From an uncultured Planctomycetota bacterium (GTDB lineage: Bacteria; Planctomycetota; Phycisphaerae; SM23-33), in NCBI GenBank assembly GCA_903892515.1, contig CAITIS010000067.1:65347-129346 (forward strand): a DNA stretch of 64,000 nt, written 5' to 3'. Of the stretch, positions 30,930 to 60,544 are shown in pieces (position 1 is the first letter of the stretch; each line of letters opens with the position of its first letter). The translations under genes and the position numbers were made by a program. The notes below the pieces were generated by a model, which saw nothing but the letters and a program-made list of their open reading frames with translations, was not told the DNA's origin and did not search any database.

Positions 30930-31046
30930 CTTTACACACACCCGGCCGGTCGGTAAGCTCGCCACTCTTTAGAAGCGCACATCATGGGCGAGGCGTCCAT
31001 GACACACGTGGCCAGGATGGCCATGCAACAAAAACAAGGTGATGCA

Positions 31047-41034: not shown

Positions 41035-41292
41035 TACTACAACGCTACGAATGGAGCTTTGATAATTCGCCTGGCTTGGAGGCCCGGAGGGCCGAAACGA
41101 TTGTAGCCGTGGGCGTAAGCCCACGGAGACCGCCCCAGTGGCAAAGAGCCCCGGCGGGGCGACAGAGTCGTTGGACAAGCCAACGGTGTCGCCCCTTCGG
41201 GGCTCAGGCACAAGCCCATGCATACCGGGGGCTTACGCCCCCGGCTACAGTAGTACCGACCCTTCGGGTCTGAATTTCGTAGCGTTGTAGTA
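41035..41292. repeat. 258-bp structured element bounded by 17-bp perfect inverted repeats (TACTACAACGCTACGAA), MITE-like or structured RNA
   Basis: IR-L 41035..41051, IR-R 41276..41292. Nested internal inverted repeats (GGCGTAAGCCC/GGGCTTACGCC, GGGGCGAC/GTCGCCCC, CCCTTCGGG). Confidence 0.55.
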
Positions 41293-41539: not shown

Positions 41540-42607
41540 CTAGCTCCACGGGGTCCGCTTCTTGATGACCTTCTTATCGCGGAAGTACTTCACGCGCTTG
41601 TAGTGGTCCTGCACGTTCGTCAGCAGCGGGTTGGTCTCATTCATGTCCTGGCCGGTGATCATGGTCAGCAACTCGGAGAACTCCTTCTCCGCCCGCAGCC
41701 AATCCTGGTCCTTTTCCAGCAGGTACGCATTGCGGTACTGTTCGCTGACCCGCTGCGTGACCTTTTCCAGCACCTGCTGGTACATGCGGTCATTTTCCGG
41801 ATCGGCAAAGAAGTTCCTGCCGCTGTACGCGTAGGCCTCCTTAAAGGCCTCCAGCACGCGGTAAAGGTGCGGCGAATCCAGCCCGTACTGCTGGTAGAGC
41901 CCCAGGGCGTAGTGCAGGCGATCTTCCATCAGCACCGGATTGACCGCCCGAACAGGCCGGGTCTCCAACGCTTTGGCGATGTCAGAACGCGAAAGTTCCG
42001 GCGGAATGGGCATTTCGTTCTCGTGCCGGCTGCTCAAGCCGGAGAGAAACAAGAACAGCAGCACCATCGCGGCCATGTATACGCCCAGGATGATCAGCAG
42101 CTTCTTTCGCCGCGAACTCTTGGGCACCGTCAACTTGTCCTGCAGGCCGACGCCGACGGCCTTGATGGCATTGCGACCTTCCGAGAGGGCAGGCAGCGTT
42201 TTGCCGGCATCAGGCTGGACCTTCTTGACGGTCTGGCCAAAGGCGTTGCGGCGTTTGTCGGGCTTCAACATGGCGGCCACGGCCTGCTCAACATCATCGC
42301 CGACGGCCACGAAGAGCAACTCGGTCTCGCGACCCACGCCGATGAGGTCGCCCGTATCCAAAAGCACGCTCTTGCCGCTTTTATACTTCCGGCCGTTGAT
42401 CCACGTGCCCAGGGCTGAAATGTTTTCGATGACCAGGCCGTCATCCACCCGGCGAAATCGAGCATGCTCGCGAGAAATGTACTGCTCGCTCAGAGACACA
42501 TTGGCCTCGGCAGAGCGGCCCAACAGCATGAGCGGGTCGGTCAGGATGACCCGCTTGCCGGCCTGGGGGCCCGCGAGAAACACAAGTTCGGCGTAAGTTT
42601 GACTCAT
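41540..42607 (-). CDS. FHA-domain protein with central TM helix (Tad/Kil-locus associated)
   Basis: N-terminal FHA (LLGRS..NVSLSEQYISREHARF ... NISALGTWINGRK). TM segment LLIILGVYMAAMVLLFLFLSGL. Confidence 0.75.
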   Translation of the reverse strand: MSQTYAELVFLAGPQAGKRVILTDPLMLLGRSAEANVSLSEQYISREHARFRRVDDGLVIENISALGTWINGRKYKSGKSVLLDTGDLIGVGRETELLFVAVGDDVEQAVAAMLKPDKRRNAFGQTVKKVQPDAGKTLPALSEGRNAIKAVGVGLQDKLTVPKSSRRKKLLIILGVYMAAMVLLFLFLSGLSSRHENEMPIPPELSRSDIAKALETRPVRAVNPVLMEDRLHYALGLYQQYGLDSPHLYRVLEAFKEAYAYSGRNFFADPENDRMYQQVLEKVTQRVSEQYRNAYLLEKDQDWLRAEKEFSELLTMITGQDMNETNPLLTNVQDHYKRVKYFRDKKVIKKRTPWS

Positions 42608-42710
42608 GGCTTGCTGGTTAGTCAGTTAATCGGTGAAGCAGCTAATCTCACGCGTCATCAGCATCAGCGTACGCCCGCGACCGGTCGCTGATTAACTGGT
42701 CTACTCTCCC

Positions 42711-43649
42711 TCAGAACAACTCCCGCTTCAAGGCCCGGATGATAATCGGAGCGAACACGGTCAGCACGACTGAAAGCAGCACCAGCAGGCTGGGCACGAG
42801 AATCCGCACCGAAGCGGCCGCTGCCAGTTTCTCCGCCCGCACAGACCGCTGCAACCGCATCAGGTTGGCCTGTTCTTTGAGCACAATCGACAGCGGCGTA
42901 CCGAGCCCTTCGGCCTGGATGATCGCCGCCACGATCGAGCGCAGCGATTCCAGCGGAATTCTATCGGACAGGTTGTGCAGTGCCATCGCCCGCGTGGTGC
43001 CCAGTTCCACCTCGGCCAGGACCGTGTTCAATTCCACGTTGAACGGGTGGCTGGGGTCTTCTCGGATCACCGTGCGAATCGCCTCGGTGAAGGTTGCGCC
43101 GGCCCCCATTGCCAATGCGATCAGGTCCAGCGTGTACGGCACGCGCCGGGCGATGTCATGCACCCGCCGCTTGGCCATGTTAAAGAGGTGGTACAGGTAA
43201 AAGCCGAAGCCGCCGACCAAACCAATGACGAGGGCCGCCGGGCTGAACTGCTGCTGCAGGGCCATGTTACCGACTGTCAGCAGGCCCGCTGAACCCACGC
43301 TGACGAGCAAGGCCATGGCAATGGCCTCATCCGTGGTGTAGAAGTTCGGGCTGCCGGCCGCAATGAGCGTCCGCCGAAGTCTTTCTCGCAAATTCGGGGC
43401 CGGAAGCTGCCGGGACAATGCCAGCAGCAGCCACAGCATGGGCGCGAAGAATGAGTTTTCAAAGAGCGTGCGCCGGTCGGCATGGCCAGTGGCAAGCGCC
43501 ATCTGCCGCTCGGGCGTGACCTCGACCCGGCCGTGCACGCCGAAGACCGCCAGCACGAACGCCACCACGAAGGCGAAGATCGCCCCCGCCAGGCCCCACT
43601 GCAGCAGGCTCATCTCGGCCAACGGGATGTTCAGTTCGATGTTATACAT
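42711..43649 (-). CDS. Tad pilus inner-membrane platform protein TadC-like (T2SS-F family)
   Basis: Polytopic. T2SSF-domain-like. Adjacent to and overlapping the TadB-like gene. Confidence 0.65.
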   Translation of the reverse strand: MYNIELNIPLAEMSLLQWGLAGAIFAFVVAFVLAVFGVHGRVEVTPERQMALATGHADRRTLFENSFFAPMLWLLLALSRQLPAPNLRERLRRTLIAAGSPNFYTTDEAIAMALLVSVGSAGLLTVGNMALQQQFSPAALVIGLVGGFGFYLYHLFNMAKRRVHDIARRVPYTLDLIALAMGAGATFTEAIRTVIREDPSHPFNVELNTVLAEVELGTTRAMALHNLSDRIPLESLRSIVAAIIQAEGLGTPLSIVLKEQANLMRLQRSVRAEKLAAAASVRILVPSLLVLLSVVLTVFAPIIIRALKRELF

Positions 43650-44507
43650 CGATGGACACAATCTGGCGGATCCACAGGAACCCGGCAACGTTGAGCAGAA
43701 TAATGAAAAACAGGATGACCTTTCCGGTGTCCTCGGTCACCAGCAGGCTCACGCCGTACGGGTCGATCATGTACAAAATGGCCAGAATCACCGCCGGCAT
43801 GGCGCCCATCCACCTGGCGGCCGTGCGACCCGGGGCGGTCAGCGTCTCGATCTGCTTCTCCAACCGATGAATCTCGCGGATGCTCTCGGCGATCCGTTCC
43901 AGCGTTTCGCCCAGGTCACCGCCGCGCTCGCGGTGCGTTAATAGAGCGGAAAACAGCAGCCGGTAGTTGCTCGACCCAATCCGGGAGGCCGCGTTCTGCA
44001 TGGCCTGTTCGAGCGAAATTCCGTGCTCGTACTCCCGCAGCAGGTGGGTGAATTCCTCGCTGATGGGCTTGGAGGCGTTGTGGGCCAACAGTTCCATCGC
44101 CTGCACCAGGTTGAGCCCGGCCCGCACGCCGCTGGACAACGTCTGGATGCCGTCAACAAGCTGATCCTCCAGCCGTGAAAGCCGCCGGCGTTTGAGCATC
44201 TTGATCGTCAGCACCGGCACGGCCAGCCCCAGCAAGGCCCCGCCCACCGCCACGAGCGCGTGCTGAATCAGCGTGTAGCCGATGGTAGCGAATAACGCCA
44301 TGCACAGGCCCGTCAGGACCGTCACCGTTCGCGGACTGATCTCCAGCAGCAGCGAGCCGCGTAGGACGGATTCGTACCCGCTCTCCTGACGCAGCACGAA
44401 ACGCCGAAACGGCGCCCAGCCGCCCAGAACAACCAGGAATACGGCCGTGAAGAGCACCGCTCCCATCGCGATCTGCCACAGCCGTTCGTCAGCCACCACC
44501 GCCATCA
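43642..44507 (-). CDS. Tad pilus inner-membrane platform protein TadB-like (T2SS-F family)
   Basis: Start set at [10 protein letters not shown] (first 148 codons of the long ORF overlap cpaF out of frame). Polytopic T2SSF-like. Confidence 0.65.
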
Positions 44508-46412
44508 CTGAAAGACCTCCAGCGCCAGCAGATCCTTTGCCATGAGTTCCTGCGTGAATTCCGGAATGTAGCCGGTGTGCTGGAGCCGCAGTTCGCCCTT
44601 CCACGCGCTGTCGAAGATATTGCCGCTGCCGAAGGACTCGTGTGCCGGCCGGAGGACGAAGATGTCCTCCGTGAGAATCTGCGAGGTTTCCTGATCCAGC
44701 CCCACCACCTCCGAAATATGCGTAATCCGCCGCCGGCCATCGGGGAATCTGGCTACCTGCACCACCAGGTGGATGGCCGCCACGATCTGCTCGCGAATAG
44801 CCCGCACCGGCATCTCGACGGCGGTCAGAACCATGGTTTCCAGCCGCATCATCGTGTCGGTCGGCGTGTTGGCGTGGATCGTGGTCAGCGAACCATCGTG
44901 GCCGGTGTTCATGGCCTGGAGCATGTCCAGAGCCTCGGGGCCGCGGCATTCGCCGACAATCAGCCGGTCCGGCCGCATACGCAGCGCGTTGCGGACCAGG
45001 TCGCGGATCGTGTAGGCGCCCCGGCCCTCGATGTTGGGCGGCCTGGTCTCCAGCCGGACGACGTGCTCCTGCGGCAGTTGCAGTTCGGCCGAATCTTCAA
45101 TGGTGACGATGCGTTCTTCGGCCCCGATGAAGGCAGCCAGCACGTTTAGCGTCGTGGTCTTGCCGCTGCCCGTGCCGCCGGAGATCAGGATGTTCTTCCG
45201 GCCTTGCACGCAGGCCTTGAGAAAGTTGGCCGTCGCCTCCGTCAGCGTGCTCCGCTCGACGAGGTCGTCGATGGTGAAGGGAATGCGGGCGAATTTTCGG
45301 ATCGTCAGGGTTGGCCCCGACAGGCTCAGCGGGTTGATGATAGCGTTGACGCGCGAGCCGTCGCTCAATCGGGCGTCCACCAGCGGCGTGGAGCGGTCGA
45401 TGCGCCTGCCCACGGGCGTGATGATTCGCTCGATAATGCTCAGGACAACTTCGTCGGAGAAGAAACTGCGGTCGGTGTTGGACACCTGGCCGTCCTTCTC
45501 AATATAAATGTGGTCCTTGCCCACGACCATGATCTCGTTGACGTGGGGCATCTCCAACAGATCCTGCAACGGGCCGTAGCCAAAGACGACGTCCTCGATT
45601 TCCTTGCTGACCATCCGCGTGGCCACGTAGCGGCGCAGCTCGTCAGTCACCTTGTCATCGCACCGCCGCAGCACGTTGTCGAAGTCCGCCTCGATCATGG
45701 CGGCGTCTTCCCGAATGGACTGCGGCGTCAGCCGAACCGGGAAGTAGCTGATGATGTCGCCCACAAGCCGGCTGAGCGTCTTTTCCAGTTCGCCCTGCAG
45801 GATGTCGGAATCCTCGAAACCGTAGCTGTACATCATCCGGCCTGTAGAACGCATGGTCAGTTCGGTAATGACGGAGCGCCAGAGGAATTCACGCAGCAGG
45901 TGAGCGAGCATCTCCTCGTCGAGTTCAGGCAACCGCTGCTGGATGATCTCGGCCAGGTGCCGCTTGATCAAGGCCGCGTAGTCCGCGTCGGCCTTGGCCA
46001 CTTGCGAGGCCACGCGCAAGTTCAGCCGTTCGAGCAATTGGGCGTGCAGCGACTGTTCGAATTCCACCAGCCGGCGGCGTGGCGTGGTCGTTTCGGCCGA
46101 GGCGCGTCCGCGCCGGGCCGATGGCTCCATCATGAACAGCGAGAACTCGCCCAGGCGAATCTCGTCACCGTAAGAGATCTTCGCACGCGTGTGCGGCGGA
46201 ACGTCGCGGTTGGCAACCGTCGTGCCGTTTAAGCCCAGGCTCTCGACGAAAAAGCTGCCGCTGTCCTTGAACAGCCGGGCGTGCTGACGCGAGACAAACG
46301 GGCTCTTGAGCGCAACCGTATTGCGCTCATCCCGGCCGATAGTGACTTCGCCATCGCCGACCTGGACGACCTTGCGCTCATCGGACAGGTGATTGTAGAC
46401 CCAGATTTCCAA
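44505..46412 (-). CDS. cpaF: Tad secretion ATPase CpaF/TadA with N-terminal FHA domain
   Basis: FHA motifs ([21 protein letters not shown]...GLNGTTVAN) then VirB11/CpaF core (Walker [10 protein letters not shown], Asp box, Walker B, His box). Confidence 0.85.
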
Positions 46413-46428
46413 ACGCCTCTCCCGCTGC

Positions 46429-47262
46429 CTATTGTCCCGGCTTTCCCGGTGTCACCGGCGCGTTGCTCAGCAGCGCCTCGACCTCCGGGTTGAGCTTGTT
46501 GTCGAACTGGGCCTGGTTGTCGGTGGGGTTCCTCACCGCCAGCCAAAGCTTGCCCTCGATCCGCGGCATCAGATCGGCCAGTTGCACGGCCACTTCAGGT
46601 TTGAGTTCCACGGTGAACGACCGGTACACGCGGGCGGCGCTGTCGCGGGCCGAGGAAACGCCTGGCCGGTCGTCGGGTGATTCGCTGCGCCCACCGATCG
46701 CGATGACGCGCAGATTCTGAATCAGCACATACGCCTTGGCCGGCCTGCCCTTGATGCTGAACAAGCCGATCAGATCGGCGCGGTCACCCACCTGAAGCAA
46801 GCCGCCGGGCGTGTAGCTCGGGTCCACCGGCAGCGAGACGCCCAGCATGCCCTTGCGGATGTTGATTGACGGGCTCTCGCGGTCGGAGCCGACAAGCTGA
46901 ACGAAGCGAATGTACTCGTCGCGGCTGACGGCGCGGTTGACGTGTACGTTTGGCCCCAACACAAGCTGTCGATCGGCCTTGGTCAGCACCTTGCCCTGGC
47001 TGTTGTATTCGTTGCGGTGGATGTCCACCTCGGCAAAGTCGTTGGGCGTGATTTCTTCGCCGCTCTTTAAGTCGCGAGTCCACTTGAGCACCGTGACGGT
47101 GTCGCCGGTCAATTGCCGCTCGCGGGCCGAGTCGTAGGCAATGAACAATCCCACGGCCACCAAGCCGGCGATCACCGCCACGAGCAGCAGCTTCTTGTTG
47201 ACCTGGCCGTCGCCGCCGGTGGGCGTCCCAGGGGCAATCCTCTTGGCAGTCGTTTCAGCCAT
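46429..47262 (-). CDS. cpaB: Flp pilus assembly protein CpaB/RcpC (SAF + periplasmic domain)
   Basis: N-terminal TM segment LLLVAVIAGLVAVGLF. SAF-like region and conserved CpaB C-terminal domain. Start at MAETTAKR. Confidence 0.75.
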   Translation of the reverse strand: MAETTAKRIAPGTPTGGDGQVNKKLLLVAVIAGLVAVGLFIAYDSARERQLTGDTVTVLKWTRDLKSGEEITPNDFAEVDIHRNEYNSQGKVLTKADRQLVLGPNVHVNRAVSRDEYIRFVQLVGSDRESPSINIRKGMLGVSLPVDPSYTPGGLLQVGDRADLIGLFSIKGRPAKAYVLIQNLRVIAIGGRSESPDDRPGVSSARDSAARVYRSFTVELKPEVAVQLADLMPRIEGKLWLAVRNPTDNQAQFDNKLNPEVEALLSNAPVTPGKPGQ

Positions 47263-47399
47263 CGTCTTCCTCGACCTCGTTTCGCCGCGTGACACGGGCG
47301 TCTCGCCCGTGCGTGTCACGGCCGTCTCGGCCGTGTTTCCTTCAGAACCATGGGCGAGACGCCCATGACACACATGGCCGAGACGGCCATGTCACATTC

Positions 47400-48014
47400 C
47401 TATCTCTTTAGCGGACGGGAGATCGCCAACGCAATCTCCGCCTGATCTTTTCTATCGGCTTGTCGAATGCCCACCCAGTAGGACTCTCCGTGGGCTTGGA
47501 CGAACGTGAGAGCGGATGAGCCGTCAATACCGGTGCGTTTCACGAGTTTGTACCCAAGTTTAGGCATGGCGGTTCGATAGAACGATTCCACGTCGTCCGG
47601 GCTAGAGGCCGCCGCATAGTGTAAGCTCCAACTCTCGATCCCGCCAATGTCGCGTGAAAAGCCGTACAGAAGCCGGCTCCCAGGCGGCGAAACCACCCAC
47701 GCCGGCGGCTGGGTCACCGGCCGCATGTGCTCCATCGCAAAGGGCTGGCTGGCCAAGGCAAACGGATCGGACGCGGGCATGGTCGAGTTCGCCGCCCAGG
47801 CATCTGCGTAATCTGCGGACGGCTGGGGCAAGTGACGAGCCCGCAGATTCCGCTCGACGACAAGAACATGCCCCGCAAGCCCCAACCCCACTGCCAGCAA
47901 CACGCCCATAACTTTCCACGCCAGTCGATGTCCAGACAGTCGGGGGCGGCTGGGCCGCTGGCTCTGGCCGTTGCCGCATTGCGCGTGCTCAGTTGGGCGG
48001 TCTGGCACCGTCAT
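47400..48014 (-). CDS. hypothetical membrane-anchored protein within Tad locus
   Basis: 204-aa ORF with an N-terminal hydrophobic segment. No recognised family. Overlaps the tadE-like stop by 4 nt. Confidence 0.45.
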   Translation of the reverse strand: MTVPDRPTEHAQCGNGQSQRPSRPRLSGHRLAWKVMGVLLAVGLGLAGHVLVVERNLRARHLPQPSADYADAWAANSTMPASDPFALASQPFAMEHMRPVTQPPAWVVSPPGSRLLYGFSRDIGGIESWSLHYAAASSPDDVESFYRTAMPKLGYKLVKRTGIDGSSALTFVQAHGESYWVGIRQADRKDQAEIALAISRPLKR

Positions 48015-48619
48015 TGCGTCGGCCGACCCCAGTAGCCCAGGTACAAGTTCTGGATCATCCCAACCATTCCCGCAGCCACCGGGTCAGCCGTTTCCAGCGA
48101 CTGATCCAAGTCCGAGAGGTACAGGGTCCGCAAGGCGTTCCAGCAACTGACGTCGTCGAGAACCCAGGTCACGCCGTCGCGGCTGTGGTGGCTCGATATC
48201 GTCGGCGAGAATCTCGCCCCCGCCCGGGGCTGAAGGGCTAGAAAATCGGCCGAGGCGCGAACATCGGTGCCGCCGGGAAAAGCCTCTCCGATGGTGGCAT
48301 CAGCCAGCGGCTGAGCGCCTTGACTGATCTGGCCAAGCAAGTCCTGCATGGTAGTAACCTCGGCGTTGCTGGGCGTGATGACGACGTTGACGCCCTTGCT
48401 GGCCATGGCCACCTCGTTGGTTCGGTCCTCACTGGGAGTGCCGTTGTAGATCGTCTCCCAGGCGGCGTATCGACTGGCCATGATGACCTGCTGCTTGTGC
48501 AGCATCGCCCAGCCAAAGAAGAAGATGAACGACACCACGGTGGCCAGGAACGGCAAGGCCAGCACCATCTCGGTCATGGCGGTGCCCGCGGCGAATTGTC
48601 GGTTGTGCGTGTGCATCAT
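48011..48619 (-). CDS. TadE-like pseudopilin (TadE/TadG N-terminal motif)
   Basis: N-terminus AAGTAMTEMVLALPFLATVVSFIFF matches the TadE-family pattern. Confidence 0.65.
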   Translation of the reverse strand: MMHTHNRQFAAGTAMTEMVLALPFLATVVSFIFFFGWAMLHKQQVIMASRYAAWETIYNGTPSEDRTNEVAMASKGVNVVITPSNAEVTTMQDLLGQISQGAQPLADATIGEAFPGGTDVRASADFLALQPRAGARFSPTISSHHSRDGVTWVLDDVSCWNALRTLYLSDLDQSLETADPVAAGMVGMIQNLYLGYWGRPTQ

Positions 48620-48706
48620 CTTCTCTCGGTCATCAGGTGGGCCTCACAATACAGCGTTCGGCCCAGCCTACGCATTTCCCTACGCCCTGCGCCCTACGCC
48701 CTGCCT

Positions 48707-50700
48707 CTAATGCTGCATCATCTGCTGGGCCATCTCGGCGCTGAAGTTCGACAAGTATCGGTACGTTTCAGAAACGGCCGACATGGACACAATCCCTTCC
48801 GTCTGGTCGGCCTGGTCTACTCCCTGCGATAGCCGGCTGATCCAGTCGTCCCAACGAGTAACAGGCACGAGTTTGACCTTCCAGTCCTGCGTCCAGAGAT
48901 CCCAACTCGTGGCGTTGAAGATTTCCACCTGCGACACCGCCAGAATGTGATCGAACGGATTCCCGCTGCCAAACCGCTGGGCCCAGGCCGTCGGCGTGTT
49001 TGGCTTGCGCGCGACGCCCAGCCAGGTAAACTGGCTCCGCCGCGATCCCTGATCGTGGTCGCTTGTGTAATCCTTGGCGTTGTCGGCCATCAGGATCGGC
49101 GCCGGCAAGCTTGCGTCATCGAGGCTGTCATAGTTGCTCGGGTCGTGAATCGGTTCGTCACTGCCCACATCGATGCCGCCAAAGACGTAGTCACTCACCA
49201 CGTACACGTTGAACAGAACCGGCTTGCCGCTGGCGTCAAGTTGCAGGGCGATGCCGATGGTTGCGTCTTGCTCCGTCTGGTAGAACCACTGGTCCTCCCA
49301 GATCCACTCGCCAATTTGTTGCAGCGACCATTTGGCAGGGTTTTCCCAATGATCCACCCAAACGGCCATGGGTGTCGGCGGGATGAAAAAGCTACCGGGA
49401 GAGAGGAACCGCCCATCCGTGCGAGGGTATCGGCTGCGAACTTCGATCCTGTAGAACATCGTCTGCCGAATCGTCACACCGCCGCGGTCGGCCAGAGCCA
49501 ATGCCTGCGGATAGTTGATCACCCAGTGGGGTCTGTGAATCTGCCGCTGCGCCTTGTCGCCCCACATGTACGCCAACTTAGCTGGGGCCAGCGTTCCCAT
49601 GTAGTAATTGGTCTGGTCGATGGGACGTTGCGTGGCGTAGCCGGCCGGGCCCGCGCTGGTCCCTGACCAGGGTCTGGCGAAGAGTGTGTCGCTCAGCCCC
49701 GAGGTGGACTGCGCCCACCACCCGACCTGGTCCATCATCCAATCGAAAGGCCCATATGGGGCGTAGCCGGTCTGGTCGATGGGACGCCAGGTCCAGTAGC
49801 CGTTGGGGTTGCCCATGCCGCTAAGTGCTCCGCTGCCGGTGGCACGCGTCTGGCCGCCCAGGCTAAACCCAGACGAGCCGGGTTGTATCTGCCCTGATCC
49901 AGGCGCCGGCGGCACATACCGGCCGGGCACGGTGTGGCCTCGGTAATCGCGCCAGCGAAAGAGTCGATCAAATGGCCCCAGGCGATACGGCCACTGCCGG
50001 TCGGGGATTATGCCATGTTTCACCGGGCCGGCGAAGTCGATGAACGCGCCCCGCCGGCCGGGGAACTCGGGCAGGATCGGCGTGACGAAGGCGTCGCTCG
50101 CCCCATCGCCGTGGCCATACTGCACCGCATTGGACTGGCTCAGCACGCCGGCAGAGGAGGTGACTGACTGGCTCAGTTCGTCCAGACTGACGGCCGCACG
50201 CCACAGTTCGCCGTGCGGCGGCGGTCCCGGCTGGTCGGCCAAGTGCCAATACGTCAATCGCTCCATGCGAAAGATGCCTTGGTTGAACAGCCGGTCCATC
50301 GGATCAAGAATGTTCTTCTGCCGCTCAAAGCGGTCTCGCAGCAGTTTCAGGCCCTGGTAGAGCGGCGAATCCTGGTTGTTGATCGTCTTGAGTTGCGCGG
50401 CCCCCTCCACCACGGCCAGTTGGTCATTCAGCCGGTTCAGCCAGGCGGTGGCGTCGAGGTTCGCCAGTTCCGTCGCCAGCGGAAGGGAGTCCAGGATCGG
50501 CACCAGGGCCAGCATGCGGGTCTGGGCCACGTTGTTCATGGCCACGGTGTTCATGCTGCGGGCCATCCACGTGGCGCCGCCCACGGCCGTGGCGTCGGCA
50601 GCGTTCTGCATCGCCAGATGACCGTTGAGTTGATCGCCGACATTGACGACGTAAAAGATCATTCCCGCCAGCAGCAGAATCCCCAGCAAGACCACCACGA
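48707..50700 (-). CDS. TadG-like large pilus-assembly/pseudopilin protein
   Basis: Tad_N-like pattern VVVLLGILLLAGMIFYVVNVGDQLNGHLAMQNAADATAVGGA. True start likely a GTG near 50690; the long ORF N-terminus is translated repeat DNA. Confidence 0.6.
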
Positions 50701-50947
50701 GAATCTGGCCAGGTTGGAAAAGCAGGCCAGAGGTCAGAGGCCTGAGGGCAGAGGGAGAAGCAACCGCTGGGTGCCATGGTCGCGGAGTCCAGCGACCATG
50801 CGCGCTGCCTGCGTCCGTGTGGCCGCACGCGCCGCGACTACGACCCGCGCGGAAACATGCTTCCCCAAACAGCGTGGAAGCATGGCACCCAATCAAGCGC
50901 GGGCGAGACGCCCATGTCACAAAATGCCTCAGGCCCATGGCAGCTGA

Positions 50948-51014
50948 CCTCAGGCCACTGGCCTCGGGCCTCTGACCTCCGGCCTCTGACCTCCGGCCTC
51001 CGGCCTCTGGCCTC
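50948..51014. repeat. tandem GGCCTCTGACCTCC-type repeats (inverted copy at ~50722-50756)
   Basis: ggcctctgacctccggcctctgacctccggcctccggcctctggcctc seen directly. Reverse-complement copy across the 50760-50940 spacer. Confidence 0.7.
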
Positions 51015-51051
51015 TTCTCTTCGTGGCCTTTGTGGTCCAGGTTTTCCCGCA

Positions 51052-53712
51052 TCACTGGGGCCTTTTGGAGGCATCCTCGATGAGCTTTTCCACTTCGGGC
51101 GTCTGGCGGAAGCTCCTGGCGAGCTTGAAGTACGCCAGGGCCTGCACGTAATTCTGATCGGCCAGCTCCTGCTTGCCGCGCTGGAGGTTGTCCTGGTACT
51201 TAACCTCGTTGATCCGCTCCCTCACCTCGGGCTTGTCCAGCACGTTCTTGGCGGCGGTCAGCCGGTTGAGGGCCTCGCCGTAGTTGCCCTTGGCCCGTGC
51301 GGCCTCAGCCTGGTTCATGAGGTCGGAATACTTCTTCTCAAGCTGCACCTGCTCGATGCGGGCGCGGGCTTCGGGCGTGTTGGGCCTGGCCGCGTCGGCC
51401 CGCCGATAGGACGCCTCGGCCTTGGCCCAATCCTTGGCCGCGACAGCCTGATCGCCTTCGTACATCGCCTTGGCGTATTGCGCGTCGGCCAGTTTGGCCT
51501 TGATCTCGTCTCCCGGCCGGACGCCAGCGGCGGCGTGGTACTTCTCAATCGCGTCGTCAAATTTCTTCTCGGCCAGCAGCTTGTCGCCGGCCTGCGTGAG
51601 GCCCTGATAGTCTTTCAGCTTGCTCGCCTCGGCCAGCTCCGCCTGCACCTCGGGCGTATCACGACACTCCTTGGCCTTGTTGAACTCGTCCAGCGCCAAC
51701 TCCACCTGGCCGGTCGTCATGTGCTGCCGCCCCTGCTCCAAGTTGTAGTTGTAGCGGAGGTCCTTGACCTTCTCCGCCAGTTCCGGCGTGCTCTTGAGCT
51801 TCAGGGCCTTGTCGTACGCGTCGGCGGCCGCCATCATCTGGTTCTGGCTCAGCGCGGTCTCGGCCTCGGCGATGGCCTTGCCGTACTCGATGCCGACCTT
51901 CAGCTCGGCCTTCTTCTGTTCGGCCGTCTGCTTGAGCTGCTGATAGACCTCCGGCGAAAGCGACTGCCGCTCGCTCTCGACCACGGCCAGCGCCTTCTCA
52001 CACTCAATCATCGCCTCGTCGGGCTTGTTCTCGGTCATGGCCTGATCGGCCTTCTGCAGGTGGCCCAGGTACTCGCTCTGCTTTTGCATCTCCTGGATCT
52101 TGGCGGTCAAAGCCTTGACCTCGTCAAACTGTTCGGTCAGCAGGGCCTTCTTGCCGGCCTCCTCGGCCTCGGTCAGCGCTTGCGCCAGATTGCCGCTGGC
52201 AATGCCGGCCTTGGCGGCCTCGAGCCTCTTCTGGTAATCCCGCTGCTGCATGTAGTAGTCGCTGAACTCCTTGAGTTGGTCCTTCATGTCCTGCGTCCAC
52301 TTGTACAGCTCCCCCTGGGCGTTTCGCTGGATATCCACGTTCCGGTCGGACGCTTTGGACCAGTACATATCCACGCTGTTGCTGTTGTTTTCGAGCACGC
52401 CCAGTTGCGCCGTCGTCAGCCAGCTCATTACCTCGGCCTTGGAGGCTGTGTTGGGCGCCTGCTCGCCATAACGCTTGGCGATGCGGCCAAACGCTGCGCC
52501 CGCCTCGCCGAACTTAGCCTGTTTGACCGCGCGGCTGGGAGCCTTGGCGGCTTCGCGATAGTCCACCAGGGCCTGGTCATAGGCCTGCTGGGCATCGCGG
52601 CGAACCATGTCGCGCTGCAAGTAGCTCCGCACCAGCAGGAACACGAGCACGACCACCACCAAGCCCATGATCGATGCGACATAGGCGAGCTTCTTGCCCA
52701 GTGACATGCTCGTCTTTGGAATGCTCGCCGTCAGTGCCTCTTGAGGCGAAGGCACCGCCCCCGTCGGCGGCACGGACAACTCCGCCGAGTCGCCGGGGCT
52801 GATTGGAGCAGGCCGCTCCGCCGTATCTCGGCCAGGGCGGCTGAAGGAAGCCCGGATATCCCGGCCTAGCGCTTCAACGTCGGCGTATCGCTTGGCGGGG
52901 TCTTTGGCCATCATCTTCTCGACCACGGATGAAAGGCTTGCCGGCACGGATGGATTCGCTTCCGCCAGCGGCGGCGCCGACACATCCGGCGAGGAATGCC
53001 ATTTCATCCACCGCAGCGCTTCGCTGTGCGGATCGCGCACGATGTCCTGGAAGATCTCGTTGAACTTACTCCGCCCGCACAGCATCTCGTAGGAAATAAT
53101 GCCCAGCGAGTAGATGTCCGACTGGCCGTCCACCTGGGCGGTCGAGAACAATTCCGGCGCCATGTACTTGGTGGTGCCCAGTTTCATCGACGCAGCCGAA
53201 CCCGTCCGGGCCGCCACGCCGAAGTCGGTGATCTTGACCCGCAGATCCTTGGTGATGAGGATGTTGCCGGGCTTGATGTCGCGGTGGATGATGCCCGCGC
53301 GGTGAATCGACGACAGCCCGGCCGCGATCCGCCAGATGATCTGCAGGGCCGATTTCGTCTCGATCGGCTTACCCGGGGTGAGCATCGATTCGAGACTCTG
53401 GCCGTCGACGAACTCCATGACCACGAACATGCCGCTGGGCTCTTCGAGCATGTCCAGAAGCGTCACGACGTGCTCGCTGCCGAGCTTGGCCACCTGCTGG
53501 GCAACCTCGCGGTAGCGGCGAATGAACGCGGCATCGGAAGAAGCCGGGGCGGGAATCTGCTTGATGGCGACGAAGCGGTCGAGCACCGGGTCGTGGGCCT
53601 TGTACACAATGGACTGCCCGCCCGCGCCGATGCGTTCGAGGATGACGTACTTGCCGATCTTCGTGCCCGGCGGCAACGCACCGGCCATAGCTTGTTTCAT
53701 ATCAACGGCCAT
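51052..53712 (-). CDS. Hanks-type Ser/Thr protein kinase, single TM, long C-terminal TPR/coiled-coil domain
   Basis: GAGGQSIVYKA..VAIKQ, HRDIKPGNIL, DFG, YMAPE motifs. TM segment LAYVASIMGLVVVVLVFLLV. ~500 aa of TPR-like repeats. Confidence 0.85.
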   Translation of the reverse strand: MAVDMKQAMAGALPPGTKIGKYVILERIGAGGQSIVYKAHDPVLDRFVAIKQIPAPASSDAAFIRRYREVAQQVAKLGSEHVVTLLDMLEEPSGMFVVMEFVDGQSLESMLTPGKPIETKSALQIIWRIAAGLSSIHRAGIIHRDIKPGNILITKDLRVKITDFGVAARTGSAASMKLGTTKYMAPELFSTAQVDGQSDIYSLGIISYEMLCGRSKFNEIFQDIVRDPHSEALRWMKWHSSPDVSAPPLAEANPSVPASLSSVVEKMMAKDPAKRYADVEALGRDIRASFSRPGRDTAERPAPISPGDSAELSVPPTGAVPSPQEALTASIPKTSMSLGKKLAYVASIMGLVVVVLVFLLVRSYLQRDMVRRDAQQAYDQALVDYREAAKAPSRAVKQAKFGEAGAAFGRIAKRYGEQAPNTASKAEVMSWLTTAQLGVLENNSNSVDMYWSKASDRNVDIQRNAQGELYKWTQDMKDQLKEFSDYYMQQRDYQKRLEAAKAGIASGNLAQALTEAEEAGKKALLTEQFDEVKALTAKIQEMQKQSEYLGHLQKADQAMTENKPDEAMIECEKALAVVESERQSLSPEVYQQLKQTAEQKKAELKVGIEYGKAIAEAETALSQNQMMAAADAYDKALKLKSTPELAEKVKDLRYNYNLEQGRQHMTTGQVELALDEFNKAKECRDTPEVQAELAEASKLKDYQGLTQAGDKLLAEKKFDDAIEKYHAAAGVRPGDEIKAKLADAQYAKAMYEGDQAVAAKDWAKAEASYRRADAARPNTPEARARIEQVQLEKKYSDLMNQAEAARAKGNYGEALNRLTAAKNVLDKPEVRERINEVKYQDNLQRGKQELADQNYVQALAYFKLARSFRQTPEVEKLIEDASKRPQ

Positions 53713-53720
53713 TCAATTCC

Positions 53721-54452
53721 CTATCCGCCCGCAGGAATGTCGCGGGGAAACTTCTCCACATCGATCTCATCCACCAGCCCCTCATTGGGCAAGGCAAAGG
53801 ATGCCGCTGCCGCCGTGGCGTAACCGCCGCCAACACCTGTTGACTCGCCAAACAGGCGATTGGCGTACGGCACCGACAGGAACAGCAAGTGCGTCACGCG
53901 CACCTGCAAGTCTTCGTGCGCGGCATACGCCCAGCCATCCGCCGGCGGCGCCAATGTAACCTGCGTGTTCTCATACGCGTAATTATACTTCGCCGCCAGC
54001 AATTGGCCGACCCAGTTGGGCACGCCTTGGCCTGAACGCAGGAAGAACTCCCGCAGCCCATCGCTGATCGCACCGGTCGAATCGCCCTGACCGCCGGCAC
54101 TCTTGCCCGACGATATCGGCAGCACCGTGAACACCGCGGCCATGCGAATGTGCTGGTACTTTTCGTCGGTGAGCTTGTTCCAGTTCCGAAAAGCTGGATC
54201 GGCTCCGCTACTCGACGGCAGATCTTCTGGTATCCAGACCACGGCCGACCTGGCCGCAGCATAAGCGGCCGCGTTCACGGCCAGATTGCCCGCCATCAGC
54301 AACATCGACTGAATCAGGATCAGCACGATCGCCAGTGCGACCGGAAAGACCAGCGCGAACTCGACCGCGGCCGTGCCTTCCTGACCGCCGAATCGACGGG
54401 AACCGTAGGGCGGGCACTGCCCGCCGCGATTTCTCCCCAATCGCCGCATCAT
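53721..54452 (-). CDS. TadE-like pseudopilin (second copy)
   Basis: N-terminus MRRLGRNRGG...GTAAVEFALVFPVALAIVLILIQ (TadE motif). Start trimmed. The 22-bp palindromic element falls in codons 7-14. Confidence 0.6.
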   Translation of the reverse strand: MMRRLGRNRGGQCPPYGSRRFGGQEGTAAVEFALVFPVALAIVLILIQSMLLMAGNLAVNAAAYAAARSAVVWIPEDLPSSSGADPAFRNWNKLTDEKYQHIRMAAVFTVLPISSGKSAGGQGDSTGAISDGLREFFLRSGQGVPNWVGQLLAAKYNYAYENTQVTLAPPADGWAYAAHEDLQVRVTHLLFLSVPYANRLFGESTGVGGGYATAAAASFALPNEGLVDEIDVEKFPRDIPAGG

Positions 54453-54690
54453 GCCGCACAGGAAGACCAGCACCGCACCGCTGGCCAACATGCATAGACC
54501 GGCAATCACGGTCAGCCGGTTGGTCAGGAACCCGTCAAACCAGACTGGCCGGGCACGCCAAGCGATCCAGAGCACCACGGCCAGTGCGGCCACAGCGCTC
54601 AATTTGCACAACGCAAGGCCAACACGGCCGAACGACACATGGACGCGACGCCCATGCCGCGGCTCTCTGCCACCAGAATGAATCGATTGT

Positions 54691-55311
54691 TCAACCAAGC
54701 GGCCTCCCGCCGTGCATGATTGCGTACCACGCCAGTTTTCCGACTGCCCCAAGCACGCCCACGCACAGAGCAACGGCAAATGGAATTCGCGGGCTCTCGG
54801 GCGTGGTGGGATCGGCTGGGCGGACGCCGCCAAACAGCAGCGCGGCCGCGTGAAACACCCGCCGCAACGTCTGGCGGACAACTTTCCGCCGAATCATAAC
54901 CCAAATCGCCATCACGGCCGCTGCCAGGCAGCCAAGGAACAATGCGTCCACTGCCACCAACCAGCCGCCGATGCTGCCGATGGCTCCCATCAGCTTGGCG
55001 TCGCCACCGCCGATGCCGCCGGCCAGCCATACCAGCATCATGGGCACGAAGCCAACGGCCAGCCCGGCCAGCGATCCGGCCAAGCCCATGTCGTTGTCGG
55101 TCCCGACCACCCCACCGGCCAAGGCATGCCCCGCCAAACCCACGAGAACCGCCGAGTAGGTCAGCCAATTTGGAACCAGCCCCTTACGCAGGTCAACGAC
55201 GGCCGAGGCAACGGCCATCGCCACCAAGGCGGCCGCGCACCACGTTGGCAGTCCCAGCGGGGACTGTACCAGCCAAGCCATCGCACTCTCGACTCGGTCG
55301 AGCCATGGCAT
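54691..55311 (-). CDS. A24-family prepilin peptidase (TadV/CpaA-like)
   Basis: Polytopic with GGGDAKLMGAIG motif. Start set at MPWLDRV. Confidence 0.75.
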   Translation of the reverse strand: MPWLDRVESAMAWLVQSPLGLPTWCAAALVAMAVASAVVDLRKGLVPNWLTYSAVLVGLAGHALAGGVVGTDNDMGLAGSLAGLAVGFVPMMLVWLAGGIGGGDAKLMGAIGSIGGWLVAVDALFLGCLAAAVMAIWVMIRRKVVRQTLRRVFHAAALLFGGVRPADPTTPESPRIPFAVALCVGVLGAVGKLAWYAIMHGGRPLG

Positions 55312-55315
55312 CAGA

Positions 55316-55504
55316 TCAACCGGTACCTTCCGACTTGGTCGTATTCCAGAGATCCTGCACCCAGGTGGCCAGGTCCTTCCGGAACCAGATAAGCAGGCCC
55401 AGCAGCGGCAGCACAACGGCCGCGATGATGAGCAGTTTTTCCAGACCTTCGGCGCCGCGCTCGTCGGAGTGGAGCTTTCTCAAACTCGTCCAGATTCTCT
55501 TCAT
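55316..55504 (-). CDS. Flp-family type IVb pilin
   Basis: 62 aa. MKRIWTSLRKLHSDERGAEGLEKLLIIAAVVLPLLGLLIWF has Flp-like G/xxxxE + hydrophobic-stretch architecture. Confidence 0.55.
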   Translation of the reverse strand: MKRIWTSLRKLHSDERGAEGLEKLLIIAAVVLPLLGLLIWFRKDLATWVQDLWNTTKSEGTG

Positions 55505-55712
55505 ACTTCCATCCATATCTTTGTGATACATCCGCGGCTCGACTGAGCTCGCTGAAGTCCATCGGCTGTGCGCGTCGGTGGCACAGCTTTTCCAAGCTGT
55601 TCCTTTCCGAACCGGCACGGGCTAGAAAGCCTGTGCCACCACAGACTCAACTGTGTTCTCACCGCGGCACCAGCACGGCTGCAAACTCCGCAGCCGTGGC
55701 ACCCGCCCAATA

Positions 55713-55886
55713 CTCAGGGAAACGGCAAGGTCTCCAGGAACGACACCATCCGGTAGTGCGACGCCAGGGCTGACGTTCCCAGCTTGATCACGCCGAACAT
55801 CGGCAGGGCCACAGCGGCCAGCACCAGCGACCACTCCAGCGTCATTTGGCCGGCACGATCGCGCTGCAACTTCAGCCACGTCTTCA
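55713..55886 (-). CDS. Flp-family type IVb pilin (second copy, unlisted 57-aa ORF)
   Basis: MKTWLKLQRDRAGQMTLEWSLVLAAVALPMFGVIKLG fits G/xxxxEW processing motif + hydrophobic helix. ATG overlaps the cpaF2 stop region. Confidence 0.55.
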
Positions 55887-56999
55887 TGCCGCCCCCTCGG
55901 CCGACGGGAAGAGAATCTCCCTCGTCAGCTCAGCTTGGGGCTCCAGCACGCGCATGGACGCCTCGCCGCCGTACAGTGACTTCATGCCAGTCCAAACGAG
56001 CCGCCCCTTGCCCGTATTGCCGGCCTCCAGCTCGTAGCGGAAAATCGTCCGCAAGTGGTACTGGCCCTGCTCCAACGCCTGCACCTCGGCGATTTCGGTA
56101 ATGGCCCGCCGGCCGTCGGAAAAACGCATCATCTGCACGATCACGTGGATGCCCGAAGCGATTTGCGCCCGCATCGCGTGCAGCGGCAAGTCTATCTTCG
56201 ACATCATGCACAGCGTCTCCAAGCGGTTCAGCGCGTCCAGCGGATTGTTTGCGTGAAGCGTGCTCATCGAGCCCGCATGGCCGGAGGTCATCGCCTGGAC
56301 GATCTCAAGGGCCTCACCGCCGCGGCACTCGCCGATGATGATCCGGTCTGGCCGAAGGCGCAGCGACGAGCGGAACAAATCGCGAATCGTGACTTCGCCT
56401 CGCCCGTAGCGATCCGCGCCGCGACTTTCCAAGCTGATAACATGCTCCTGTTGCAGCTTCAGCTCGGACGAGTCTTCGATCACGACAATCCGCTGATGCT
56501 CGGGGATAAACCCGCTGAGCACATTGAGCAGGCTGGTCTTGCCCGAGCTGGTTCCACCGGCCACGAGCAGGTTCTTCTGGGCCAGCACGACCAGCTTGAG
56601 GTATTCCATCCCCTGCGGTGTGGCCGAACCCATCTGGATCATGAAATTGGCGTCGAAGAGCACCTTCGCGAATTTTCGGATCGTCATGCACGTGCCATGC
56701 CGGCTGAGCGGCGCAAGGATGACGTGCACGCGCGAGCCGTCGGGCAATCGCGAATCCTGCAGCGGCCGCTCGGAGGTGAGGCGTTTGCCCGTGTATTGCA
56801 GCACATTATTGACCGCGGCCAGGAATGCCGCTTCGCTGTCGAAGTGAGCGTCGGTGCGGATCAGCTGCCCGCTCTTCTCGATGTATATTTCCGAGGGCGT
56901 GTTGATCATGATCTCCGACACGGCCGGGTCGCGCAGGTACTCTGCCACCGGGGCCAGGAAGTGATTGATCGTGACGGAGAATATCTCGCTTCGGTCCAT
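55884..56999 (-). CDS. cpaF: Tad secretion ATPase CpaF/TadA (second copy, no FHA)
   Basis: 371 aa. Walker A GGTSSGKTS, Asp/His boxes, RLRPDRIIIGECRG. Confidence 0.85.
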   Translation of the reverse strand: MDRSEIFSVTINHFLAPVAEYLRDPAVSEIMINTPSEIYIEKSGQLIRTDAHFDSEAAFLAAVNNVLQYTGKRLTSERPLQDSRLPDGSRVHVILAPLSRHGTCMTIRKFAKVLFDANFMIQMGSATPQGMEYLKLVVLAQKNLLVAGGTSSGKTSLLNVLSGFIPEHQRIVVIEDSSELKLQQEHVISLESRGADRYGRGEVTIRDLFRSSLRLRPDRIIIGECRGGEALEIVQAMTSGHAGSMSTLHANNPLDALNRLETLCMMSKIDLPLHAMRAQIASGIHVIVQMMRFSDGRRAITEIAEVQALEQGQYHLRTIFRYELEAGNTGKGRLVWTGMKSLYGGEASMRVLEPQAELTREILFPSAEGAA

Positions 57000-57221
57000 T
57001 GAATATCCAAGCTGACAGCCTCGCAGCGGACAGGTCTTCCGTCCGGCGGTGAGGCCGTCTCAAAACACAACCCAACCTCGGTACTAAGTTTAGATCGGCC
57101 CGAGGACTGGAGCAAGTTGAGCACTCTGACGATAAGCTACGAGTAATACTCTGGAAAGAAAAGGAAGGTTTGCTAGAATGACGCTCCCTCGTCCGAAGCC
57201 TTTGGGCTCGGCGGGTCCTCC

Positions 57222-57310
57222 GGAGAGGTGTCCGAGTGGCCGAAGGAGCCGGTTTCGAAAACCGGTGTACACCCAACGGTGTACCGTGGGTTCGAATCCC
57301 ACCCTCTCCG
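57222..57310 (+). tRNA. tRNA-Ser (anticodon CGA), type II with long variable arm
   Basis: GGAGAGG acceptor, D-arm, anticodon stem CCGGT/ACCGG with loop TTCGAAA, long variable arm, T-arm GGGTTCGAATCCC. Acceptor 3' strand CCTCTCC pairs with the 5' end. Confidence 0.85.
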
Positions 57311-57324
57311 TATCCAGAGAGTAC

Positions 57325-60293: not shown

Positions 60294-60544
60294 TTATTCA
60301 ACAGCTGTCAGCTCTGGCCAAGCATGGCTCGCCACGCTCGCAAAGTGCCCATTCCCTGTATCCCTGCCACCTCGCTGGCACTTCATCTTGCTGCCGGAAT
60401 ATCATTGCGAACCATCCCCGTTTTATGCAGAATGCATGACTTTGTTGCCCGGCGCGAGACAGCCATGCAGGGAACGTTCCCCCAATAGCGCCGGAGAGAG
60501 GCCAACGGCCTCGCCAAGTGCCTACTTCAGAAGGGATGCAGAAG

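Follow-up and report, generated by a model that had tools for sequence, protein, structure and literature searches.

The stretch of DNA analyzed here (the window: 64,000 nucleotides of contig CAITIS010000067.1 from an uncultured bacterium of the Phycisphaerae) contains 14 co-directional, tightly packed minus-strand genes spanning positions 41540-56999. They extend from the start of the gene for a short CpaF-type ATPase (CpaF2) at 56999 to the stop of the gene for a bitopic FHA domain protein (FHA-TM) at 41540 (Table 1). The region is best read as one conserved, operon-like module that would encode a Tad-family (type IVc) filament machine, with a Hanks-type Ser/Thr kinase and two FHA proteins encoded among the pilus genes. 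An earlier sequence-only reading had listed these genes in this order on the minus strand, and all of them were found, with exactly the end points it had given. The profile searches that it had proposed confirmed the Pfam domains in the listed genes; support was weaker for the two Flp genes, of which FlpB scored below the cut-off and FlpA gave no match. Pfam matches were counted above gathering score unless stated otherwise. Because the G+C content of the window is ~63%, raw lists of open reading frames (ORFs) were noisy; the long minus-strand ORFs in this region showed coding-type codon-position GC. Gene starts were refined by inspection and from gene calls on an identical public contig, from which the 71-amino acid call for FlpB was taken; several of the longest-ORF starts proved too long.

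Adjacent genes of the set either overlapped or were separated by no more than 182 nt. Four start/stop overlaps were present: the start of FlpA overlaps the stop of CpaF2 by 4 nt, the start of the gene for a 204-residue protein overlaps the stop of TadE2 by 4 nt, the ATG of TadB at 44505 overlaps the stop of the FHA-CpaF gene, and TadC overlaps TadB by 8 nt. The gap between the kinase gene and that of TadE1 is 8 nt. On the 5' side the module is bounded by a divergent tRNA-Ser(cga) at 57221-57311, and on the 3' side a 316-nt spacer is followed by an LPG-synthase-type gene. Neither a riboswitch nor a leader RNA was found with Rfam, even at E ≤ 1, upstream of the operon or between the flp genes, and promoter and terminator scans gave counts not above those of shuffled sequence.

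Table 1. Genes of the module in the order of transcription, with the evidence for each assignment and the fraction of loci in which the gene was detected by tblastn
Product	Position	Strand	Evidence	Presence (loci)
CpaF2, short CpaF/TadA-type ATPase paralog, 371 aa	55884..56999	-	Pfam T2SSE 188.9 bits	64/65
FlpA, Flp-type prepilin, 57 aa (RAG|QMTLEW)	55714..55887	-	motif; no Pfam match	65/70
FlpB, Flp-type prepilin, 71 aa (ERG|AEGLEK)	55316..55531	-	Flp1_like 26.2 bits (cut-off 33.5)	71/72
Prepilin peptidase, TadV/CpaA type, A24, 196 aa	54691..55281	-	Peptidase_A24 51.1 bits; GGGD motif	71/72
TadE1, TadE-type minor pilin, ~290 aa	53721..54593	-	Pfam TadE 31.3 bits	74/76
Bitopic Hanks Ser/Thr kinase, 886 aa	51052..53712	-	Pfam Pkinase 177.7 bits	
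TadG-like large minor pilin, ~670-743 aa, start uncertain	48707..50938	-	Pfam Tad (TadG-type N-terminus)	63/69
TadE2, TadE/TadF-type minor pilin, 202 aa (AAG|TAMTEM)	48011..48619	-	Pfam TadE 23.5 bits	63/66
Small membrane-anchored protein, 204 aa	47400..48014	-	transmembrane helix 33-56 + ~120-aa domain	
CpaB/RcpC periplasmic alignment protein, 277 aa	46429..47262	-	Pfam RcpC 39.4 bits; TIGR03177 76.7 bits	49/59
FHA-CpaF motor ATPase, 635 aa	44505..46412	-	Pfam FHA 58.5 bits + T2SSE 200.5 bits	50/51
TadB platform protein, 287 aa	43642..44505	-	Pfam T2SSF 73.7 bits	43/44
TadC platform protein, 312 aa	42711..43649	-	Pfam T2SSF 59.2 bits	
FHA-TM bitopic protein, 355 aa	41540..42607	-	Pfam FHA 46.3 bits	

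Loci L001-L004 and L087 carried the same 14 genes in identical order, and the genes on either side differed each time. When the 14 window proteins were compared by tblastn with 84 loci, the order was kept wherever the contig was long enough. The counts for the individual genes (Table 1) take in only those loci whose contig reaches the expected gene position. The 204-residue protein is too divergent in sequence for tblastn, which detected it in 15/64 loci; a gene for 169-189 residues occupied its position in the annotated loci L001-L003 and L087. The kinases of the different loci were only 30-50% identical, and the kinase gene was always located between the genes for TadE1 and the TadG-like protein. 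Because the arrangement recurs in ~80 independent genomes, the clustering goes far beyond chance. The claim of the sequence-only reading that the kinase and both FHA modules belong to the apparatus was thus borne out, as the order was the same in at least 80 genomes whose flanking genes are unrelated.

More than 100 full-length homologs of the kinase (~900 residues, 32-45% identity) were found, and the named ones came from metagenome-assembled genomes of Phycisphaerae or Planctomycetota. When GTDB genomes, one for each species, were scanned with a query taken from the family-specific region of the kinase, including its VRDxHSEALRWMKWH signature, the signature was recovered from 179 species-level genomes. 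The best 80 of these 179 were all metagenome-assembled genomes labeled Phycisphaerae, Planctomycetota or similar, two of them labeled Anaerolineales, and no cultured isolate was among them. By these comparisons the module appears to be confined to one large clade of uncultured Phycisphaerae. Among 1.84 billion representatives, the profile made from the TadG-like protein matched 325 clusters (50% identity, E ≤ 1e-30), which points to a module widespread in metagenomes.

Individual loci were arranged differently. In L085 a TadG-like relative had no kinase upstream, but it lies at a contig end and may be an exception or a paralog. In L082 a kinase homolog of 32% identity lies ~9.4 kb into the locus and the upstream module genes were undetectable; it may be a paralog or the locus may be rearranged. 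On a TARA marine scaffold (L086, 6560-12977), genes for a TadE protein, an 866-residue Hanks kinase, a TadG-like protein and a 229-residue protein stand alone. This set adjoins genes for cytochrome oxidase and a fragment of an rve_3 transposase, and no motor, platform or FHA genes were found nearby.

The pilus components proper were examined for the hallmarks of Tad systems. Both Flp proteins showed the signature G|xxxxE[Y/W] followed by a hydrophobic helix. In FlpA, G13 was present in 65/66 orthologs, E18 in 66/66 and Trp or Tyr at position 19 in 65/66; in FlpB, G26 and E31 were kept in 71/71. The A24 peptidase is without a methyltransferase domain. TadE1, whose orthologs have 305-311 residues, has a leader of ~70 residues with an extra hydrophobic segment before its G|TAAVEF site, unusually long for a TadE prepilin. 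For the TadG-like protein, a structural model of mean confidence (pLDDT) 88 predicted a 100-residue N-terminal helix and a large head, and the head had no relative in the PDB. CpaB scored above the cut-off of 71 of its NCBIfam model. NCBIfam gave no match for the pilins, TadE, TadG or the 204-residue protein; the latter had no Pfam match either, only a weak precomputed match to AF_1845. The module thus encodes a CpaF/TadA ATPase, a split TadB plus TadC platform, the Flp motif together with an A24 peptidase, and TadE/F/G pilins together with RcpC/CpaB. By these encoded proteins, the inner-membrane part of a Tad/type IVc machine is complete.

The head of the TadG-like protein differed among orthologs. 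The 943-residue ortholog of L087 (10001-12832) contains an inserted Golvesin_C domain (PF25275), and the same Pfam match was present in P0184 and P0186. In the long orthologs P0241, P0244, P0251 and P0279 (930-1070 residues) the profile matched in two separated stretches, suggesting insertions. The head seems to be modular and to vary between loci. By analogy with the tip described by Herrou 2025 (PMC12075869), TadE1, the TadG-like protein and TadE2 may be read as a tip complex.

Both ATPases are of the CpaF type, with the CpaF structures 8rkd and 9e24 as best relatives in the PDB (E = 3e-104 for FHA-CpaF and 3e-74 for CpaF2). CpaF2 is 44% identical to the core of FHA-CpaF, which was the closer of the two to Caulobacter CpaF (352 vs 253 bits). 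In FHA-CpaF, an FHA domain (residues 23-88) is followed by an [ST]PR[KR]R motif (110-115), a helical linker and the CpaF core (268-589, with Pfam T2SSE at 280-554). The Walker A Lys was kept in 54/54 loci, and the Walker B Glu and the His of the His box in 53/53. CpaF2 has no FHA domain and nothing N-terminal to the CpaF N-terminal domain. Its Walker A Lys, Walker B Glu and His box were intact in 66-68 of 68 orthologs, and the idea that CpaF2 is a degenerate pseudo-ATPase was ruled out by these intact catalytic residues in the orthologs examined.

The kinase consists of a kinase domain (residues 22-278), within which the VRDxHSEALRWMKWH signature occupies 226-239, a juxtamembrane motif T328-A-x-[I/L]-P, a transmembrane helix at ~337-368 and a C-terminal domain of ~520 residues. 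The latter is predicted to be periplasmic and is built of helical repeats with a periodicity in Ala that resemble TPRs. The earlier label of a kinase-TPR protein holds for many orthologs, which match TPR_1, TPR_2 and related Pfam families, but not for the window protein, which gave no significant TPR match. As judged from an alignment of 27 orthologs and from column counts over the loci, K51 (VAIK), HRD (143-145), N150, DFG (163-165) and APE are invariant or nearly so, and the catalytic residues were kept in 79-81 of 81 loci. Within the 27-ortholog alignment, T180 and T181 of the activation loop were invariant. By its residues, the cluster thus encodes a catalytically competent transmembrane Hanks kinase. 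The motif around T328 ends an otherwise unalignable low-complexity linker, 8-10 residues before the single transmembrane helix. T328 was present in 72/77 loci, Ile, Leu or Val at +3 in 75/77 and Pro at +4 in 76/77. A phosphothreonine with a hydrophobic residue at +3 is a classical FHA ligand. The T-A-x-[I/L]-P motif fits such a ligand, and T328 is proposed for this reason as a candidate FHA docking site.

Both FHA domains retain the residues expected of a phosphothreonine reader, including the binding Arg and Ser. In FHA-CpaF, G26, R27 and S41 were kept in 58/58 loci, and the His and Asn positions are conserved as well; in FHA-TM, G30, R31 and S45 were kept in 30/30. The AlphaFold2 model of FHA-TM predicts a cytoplasmic FHA sandwich (1-103; Pfam match 28-92), a disordered linker, a transmembrane helix at ~167-195 and a confidently modeled, all-helical periplasmic domain (207-350). 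Among solved structures, Foldseek placed its FHA fold closest to OdhI, GarA and Bdellovibrio DgcB (E ~1e-7), with the FHA protein ArnA (5a8i) also among the structural neighbors. OdhI, GarA and DgcB are genuine readers of phosphothreonines made by kinases. For the periplasmic helical domain Foldseek returned FHA matches only, and its profile, when compared with that of the kinase, showed no similarity of note (30% probability over 27 columns). The invariance of the kinase residues, of T180/T181 and of the FHA Arg and Ser at an overall identity of 30-50% argues for selection on catalysis and phosphate binding.

Further conserved motifs were noted in the FHA proteins. The sequence [S/T]-P-R-[K/R]-R-[V/L] just behind the FHA domain of the motor (window 46068-46085, residues 110-115) was present in nearly all of 57 aligned loci and could serve as a phosphosite or, being basic, in docking. 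Most FHA-TM orthologs share KRPSEMSAxERL and RNAFGK in the disordered cytoplasmic linker (alignment columns ~180-200), which could be kinase substrate sites; KRPSEMSAxERL has been lost from the FHA-TM protein of the window.

Parts expected of a Tad locus were sought in 36 ORFs of the window, namely the 14 module genes and those ORFs elsewhere that showed coding-type codon-position GC, smaller ORFs lying outside the Pfam scan. No secretin, ParA/TadZ-like, TadD or PP2C domain was found among them, and for these ORFs the earlier statement that the window has no secretin, TadZ or TadD holds. Likewise, TadZ/CpaE was not found within the module in five annotated contexts, nor was an RcpA/CpaC secretin found in the five annotated loci or a PP2C phosphatase in the annotated loci.

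The scanned ORFs in the rest of the window were housekeeping genes. Two Acido-Lenti-1 RNA motifs scored above the Rfam gathering score, at 41225-41271 on the plus strand and at 41080-41126 on the minus strand (42.9 and 41.2 bits). The LPG_synthase_TM gene that comes next downstream of the module starts between these two oppositely oriented hits. Acidobacteria and Lentisphaerae gave the motif its name, and here it occurs in a planctomycete-like genome. Paralogous DUF4832/GH42-like proteins are encoded at 6342-7814 (+) and 57454-58842 (-), the latter immediately upstream of the module beyond the tRNA. Two paralogs resembling cofactor-independent phosphoglycerate mutase (PhosphMutase/Metalloenzyme) lie 5 kb apart at 24364-25551 (+) and 30984-32264 (+), and between them is a gene for a 715-residue protein without a Pfam family (28782-30929, +). 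At 59079-60188 (+) lies a gene for a trypsin-like protease that combines a dockerin-type domain with a weak PEP-CTERM tail. The gene for pyruvate:ferredoxin oxidoreductase (60440-64000, +; at least 1187 codons) runs off the end of the window and hints at an anaerobic or microaerophilic host.

With the canonical Tad/Flp systems (A. actinomycetemcomitans flp-tadV-rcpCAB-tadZABCDEFG and C. crescentus cpa) the module has the Flp motif, the peptidase, RcpC/CpaB, the motor, the platform and the minor pilins in common. In contrast to them, TadZ/CpaE, the RcpA/CpaC secretin, RcpB and TadD were not found in the module or the scanned ORFs of the window, whereas two CpaF paralogs, a Hanks kinase and two FHA domains were. 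The earlier description of a non-canonical Tad/Flp apparatus is therefore appropriate, given that the module was found to contain a kinase, two FHA domains and a second CpaF but neither TadZ nor a secretin.

The same reading had likened the cluster to the Kil machine of Myxococcus xanthus. Both systems have an FHA-fused CpaF (KilF in Kil) and further FHA proteins; for Kil, Seef 2021 (PMC8460266) tabulated FHA-KilF, KilD (FHA plus TPR), MXAN_3104 (FHA) and MXAN_4648 (FHA plus TPR). MXAN_4648 and MXAN_4649 (the latter FHA, PrgH-like) adjoin the platform genes KilH/KilG/KilB, MXAN_4649 immediately so, and pilins and a TadG-like gene come next (PMC8460266). This local order is strikingly like TadE-TadG-TadE-x-CpaB-[motor]-TadB-TadC-FHA in the window. 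As in the module, Kil has no TadZ or TadD and has a tip set of the TadE/TadG/TadF type. The likeness thus stood for gene content and order, and it failed on other points. Kil has a short, N0-less secretin (KilC), a single ATPase, two clusters plus extra tip clusters, and a partner type III secretion system (T3SS*) (PMC8460266, PMC12075869), and its clusters contain no kinase domain. The module, in contrast, forms one unit of 14 genes that includes a kinase and a second motor, and no secretin was found in it. It resembles Kil in layout and departs from it in several of the features that define Kil. The FHA proteins of Kil are still only "candidates" for signaling, and their kinase has not been identified (PMC8460266, PMC12428579); the Kil authors cited the threonine phosphorylation pathway of the type VI secretion system (T6SS) in this connection (Seef 2021, PMC8460266). 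The fusion of FHA to CpaF is itself a recognized architecture, class III CpaF (FHA-IDR-3HB-NTD-CAD), exemplified by Achromobacter E3HIW0 (PMC12019362). As in the motor described here, an N-terminal FHA domain and a linker precede the CpaF core. The class is reported mostly from betaproteobacteria, and no linked kinase is named in the passages of that source consulted; in the module, the genes accompanying the fusion are those of a kinase, of another FHA protein and of a short paralog.

Outside the Tad family, the PpkA-Fha1-PppA system of the P. aeruginosa H1-T6SS also combines a transmembrane Hanks kinase and an FHA protein within the gene cluster of an envelope nanomachine. In that pathway a cue activates the kinase, assembly depends on the FHA protein, and PppA is the phosphatase. 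The T6SS is a contractile machine, in contrast to a type IV filament, and the module differs further in having no phosphatase and in the fusion of FHA to the motor. By analogy, PpkA-Fha1 may be regarded as the nearest mechanistic counterpart. In Sulfolobus, a relative of type IV filaments, the archaellum, is controlled by the FHA protein ArnA, by ArnB and by the Hanks kinases ArnC/D. It is a more remote parallel: unlike the proteins described here, the Arn proteins act on expression and are neither fused to the motor nor encoded in one operon with it. Literature searches on Tad systems of Planctomycetes or Phycisphaerae with a kinase, FHA domains or two CpaF paralogs yielded no description of the module.

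These comparisons lead to the reading that we favor, at a probability of about 0.6: the module would encode a filament machine of the Tad family (type IVc) in which a circuit of kinase and FHA domains takes the place of TadZ and gates the recruitment of the motor, the recruitment step being inferred. In canonical Tad systems TadZ is the recruitment hub (PMC6668835; bioRxiv 10.64898/2026.07.08.737194), and the circuit would take over this role in recruitment and localization. The helical-repeat domain of the kinase would sense a cue in the periplasm or envelope, such as contact with a surface or a cell, or the state in which the tip pilins are, the last suggested by the tip-pilin genes that flank the kinase gene. 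The activated kinase would phosphorylate T180/T181 in its activation loop and the juxtamembrane T328-A-x-[I/L]-P motif. The resulting pT-x-x-I/L site close to the membrane would dock the FHA domain of FHA-CpaF, that of FHA-TM or both, and docking would bring the motor to TadB/TadC or hold it there, licensing extension of the filament. CpaF2, having no FHA domain, would escape this control and might act as an antagonistic (retraction) motor or as a constitutive partner. Phosphorylation-gated assembly, which the sequence-only reading had suggested, is a well-motivated proposal given the intact catalytic and phosphothreonine-binding residues and the conserved TxxI/L.

Several observations weigh against this reading. 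In FHA-TM, H48 was present in only 18/30 loci and N71 in 15/27. Both FHA domains also gave a secondary Pfam match to Yop-YscD_cpl. FHA domains of the PrgH/YscD type bind their partners without phosphate. No cognate PP2C phosphatase was found in the module, among the scanned ORFs of the window or in the annotated loci, which leaves reversibility unexplained. The role assigned to CpaF2 is a guess, and a single bifunctional motor suffices in canonical Tad systems (PMC6920026). Finally, the arrangement in L086 implies that the tightest link of the kinase is to the tip pilins and not to the FHA proteins, and the kinase may thus sense or scaffold the tip pilins first and foremost.

That last point is the core of one alternative, in which the kinase is primarily a structural or pilin-sensing protein whose transmembrane helix and periplasmic repeats bind the tip pilins or replace TadD/RcpB, while the FHA domains act without phosphate. 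The constant location of the kinase gene between TadE1 and TadG and its company of tip genes alone in L086 agree with this, as do the secondary YscD-type matches and the fact that TadD, a TPR protein, was not found in the module. We nevertheless regard this alternative as unlikely, since the catalytic residues, the Thr pair of the activation loop and the FHA Arg and Ser have stayed invariant among proteins of 30-50% identity. That the kinase is an unrelated insertion into a tad operon, which would have undone the sequence-only reading, is for practical purposes ruled out: nothing speaks for it except that kinases are, a priori, rare within tad loci, whereas the kinase occupies the same position in 63-76 loci of different species, 8 nt from TadE1, amid conserved synteny, unrelated flanks and sequences only 30-50% identical.

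The other alternatives concern the kind of machine. An ordinary adhesive Tad pilus, with its secretin, pilotin and perhaps TadZ encoded elsewhere and with the kinase and FHA proteins as a lineage-specific regulatory accessory, is a possibility to be taken seriously, although it is not the reading that we prefer. All core inner-membrane parts of Tad plus CpaB are present, secretins and peptidases frequently serve more than one system or are encoded at unlinked sites (Denise 2019, PMC6668835), the tad genes of Bdellovibrio are dispersed (bioRxiv 10.64898/2026.07.08.737194), and our survey covered 64 kb of the source genome and about ±10 kb in the others. On the other hand, the 14 genes stay together while no secretin or TadZ was adjacent to them in five annotated contexts and ~80 loci, and with the second CpaF and the loss of TadZ the departure concerns structure and not merely regulation. 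A Kil-like contact-dependent weapon, assembled at contact sites under phospho-signaling and recognizing prey through variable TadG heads, would account for the features held in common with Kil, namely FHA-CpaF, platform genes with FHA proteins encoded next to them, a gene set without TadZ and TadD, and the local order; the variable TadG-like head (Golvesin_C in L087) also echoes the "adaptable tips" of Kil (PMC12075869). We consider it decidedly unlikely, as the secretin, the one ATPase, the split and extra tip clusters and the needle-less T3SS link of Kil were not seen in the module, its neighbors in the window are housekeeping genes, and nothing points to a predatory way of life of these Phycisphaerae. 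That no secretin was found in any locus examined, the very short Flp pilins and the large periplasmic helical domains of both signaling membrane proteins would suit a secretin-less periplasmic (endo)pilus, a piston or scaffold for secretion or uptake in the enlarged planctomycetal periplasm with a kinase that reports periplasmic load. Such an endopilus is very unlikely: CpaB/RcpC normally forms a conduit toward the secretin (according to the accessible part of PMC12307814), pseudopili of type II secretion systems need a secretin too, and the large tip pilin of the TadG type, whose head has 500 residues, suggests that the tip is exposed.

The favored reading of a kinase-gated Tad machine can also be taken further. 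The module might be a self-contained two-motor type IVc machine, independent of secretin and TadZ and fired by the in-operon writer-reader circuit upon engagement of the TadE/TadG tip or cell contact, with pT328 recruiting the FHA motor for extension and CpaF2 driving retraction. This version is doubtful. If true, it would be the first Tad lineage with dedicated antagonistic motors and a natural model for the triggering of FHA-CpaF and Kil-type systems, and the machine might serve contact-dependent predation or the capture of macromolecules in uncultured Phycisphaerae.

FHA-fused CpaF motors and FHA-rich Kil clusters are already known. What appears to be new is the rewiring of a Tad-family machine by a Hanks kinase/FHA circuit encoded in the same operon, combined with a second CpaF and without a linked secretin or TadZ. 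One operon unites the writer (a Hanks kinase of the receptor type) with two readers and the motor, and it is conserved across at least 179 species-level genomes and 325 protein clusters at 50% identity. Because writer, readers and a candidate docking motif are conserved in one operon, simple biochemistry could test phospho-gated assembly of the pilus. The module challenges two generalizations about Tad systems, the single bifunctional motor and TadZ-dependent recruitment, and it raises the question of how a Tad filament would pass the outer membrane of a diderm planctomycete without a linked secretin. It flags a conspicuous surface or contact organelle in a class of bacteria that is environmentally abundant, poorly known and uncultured.

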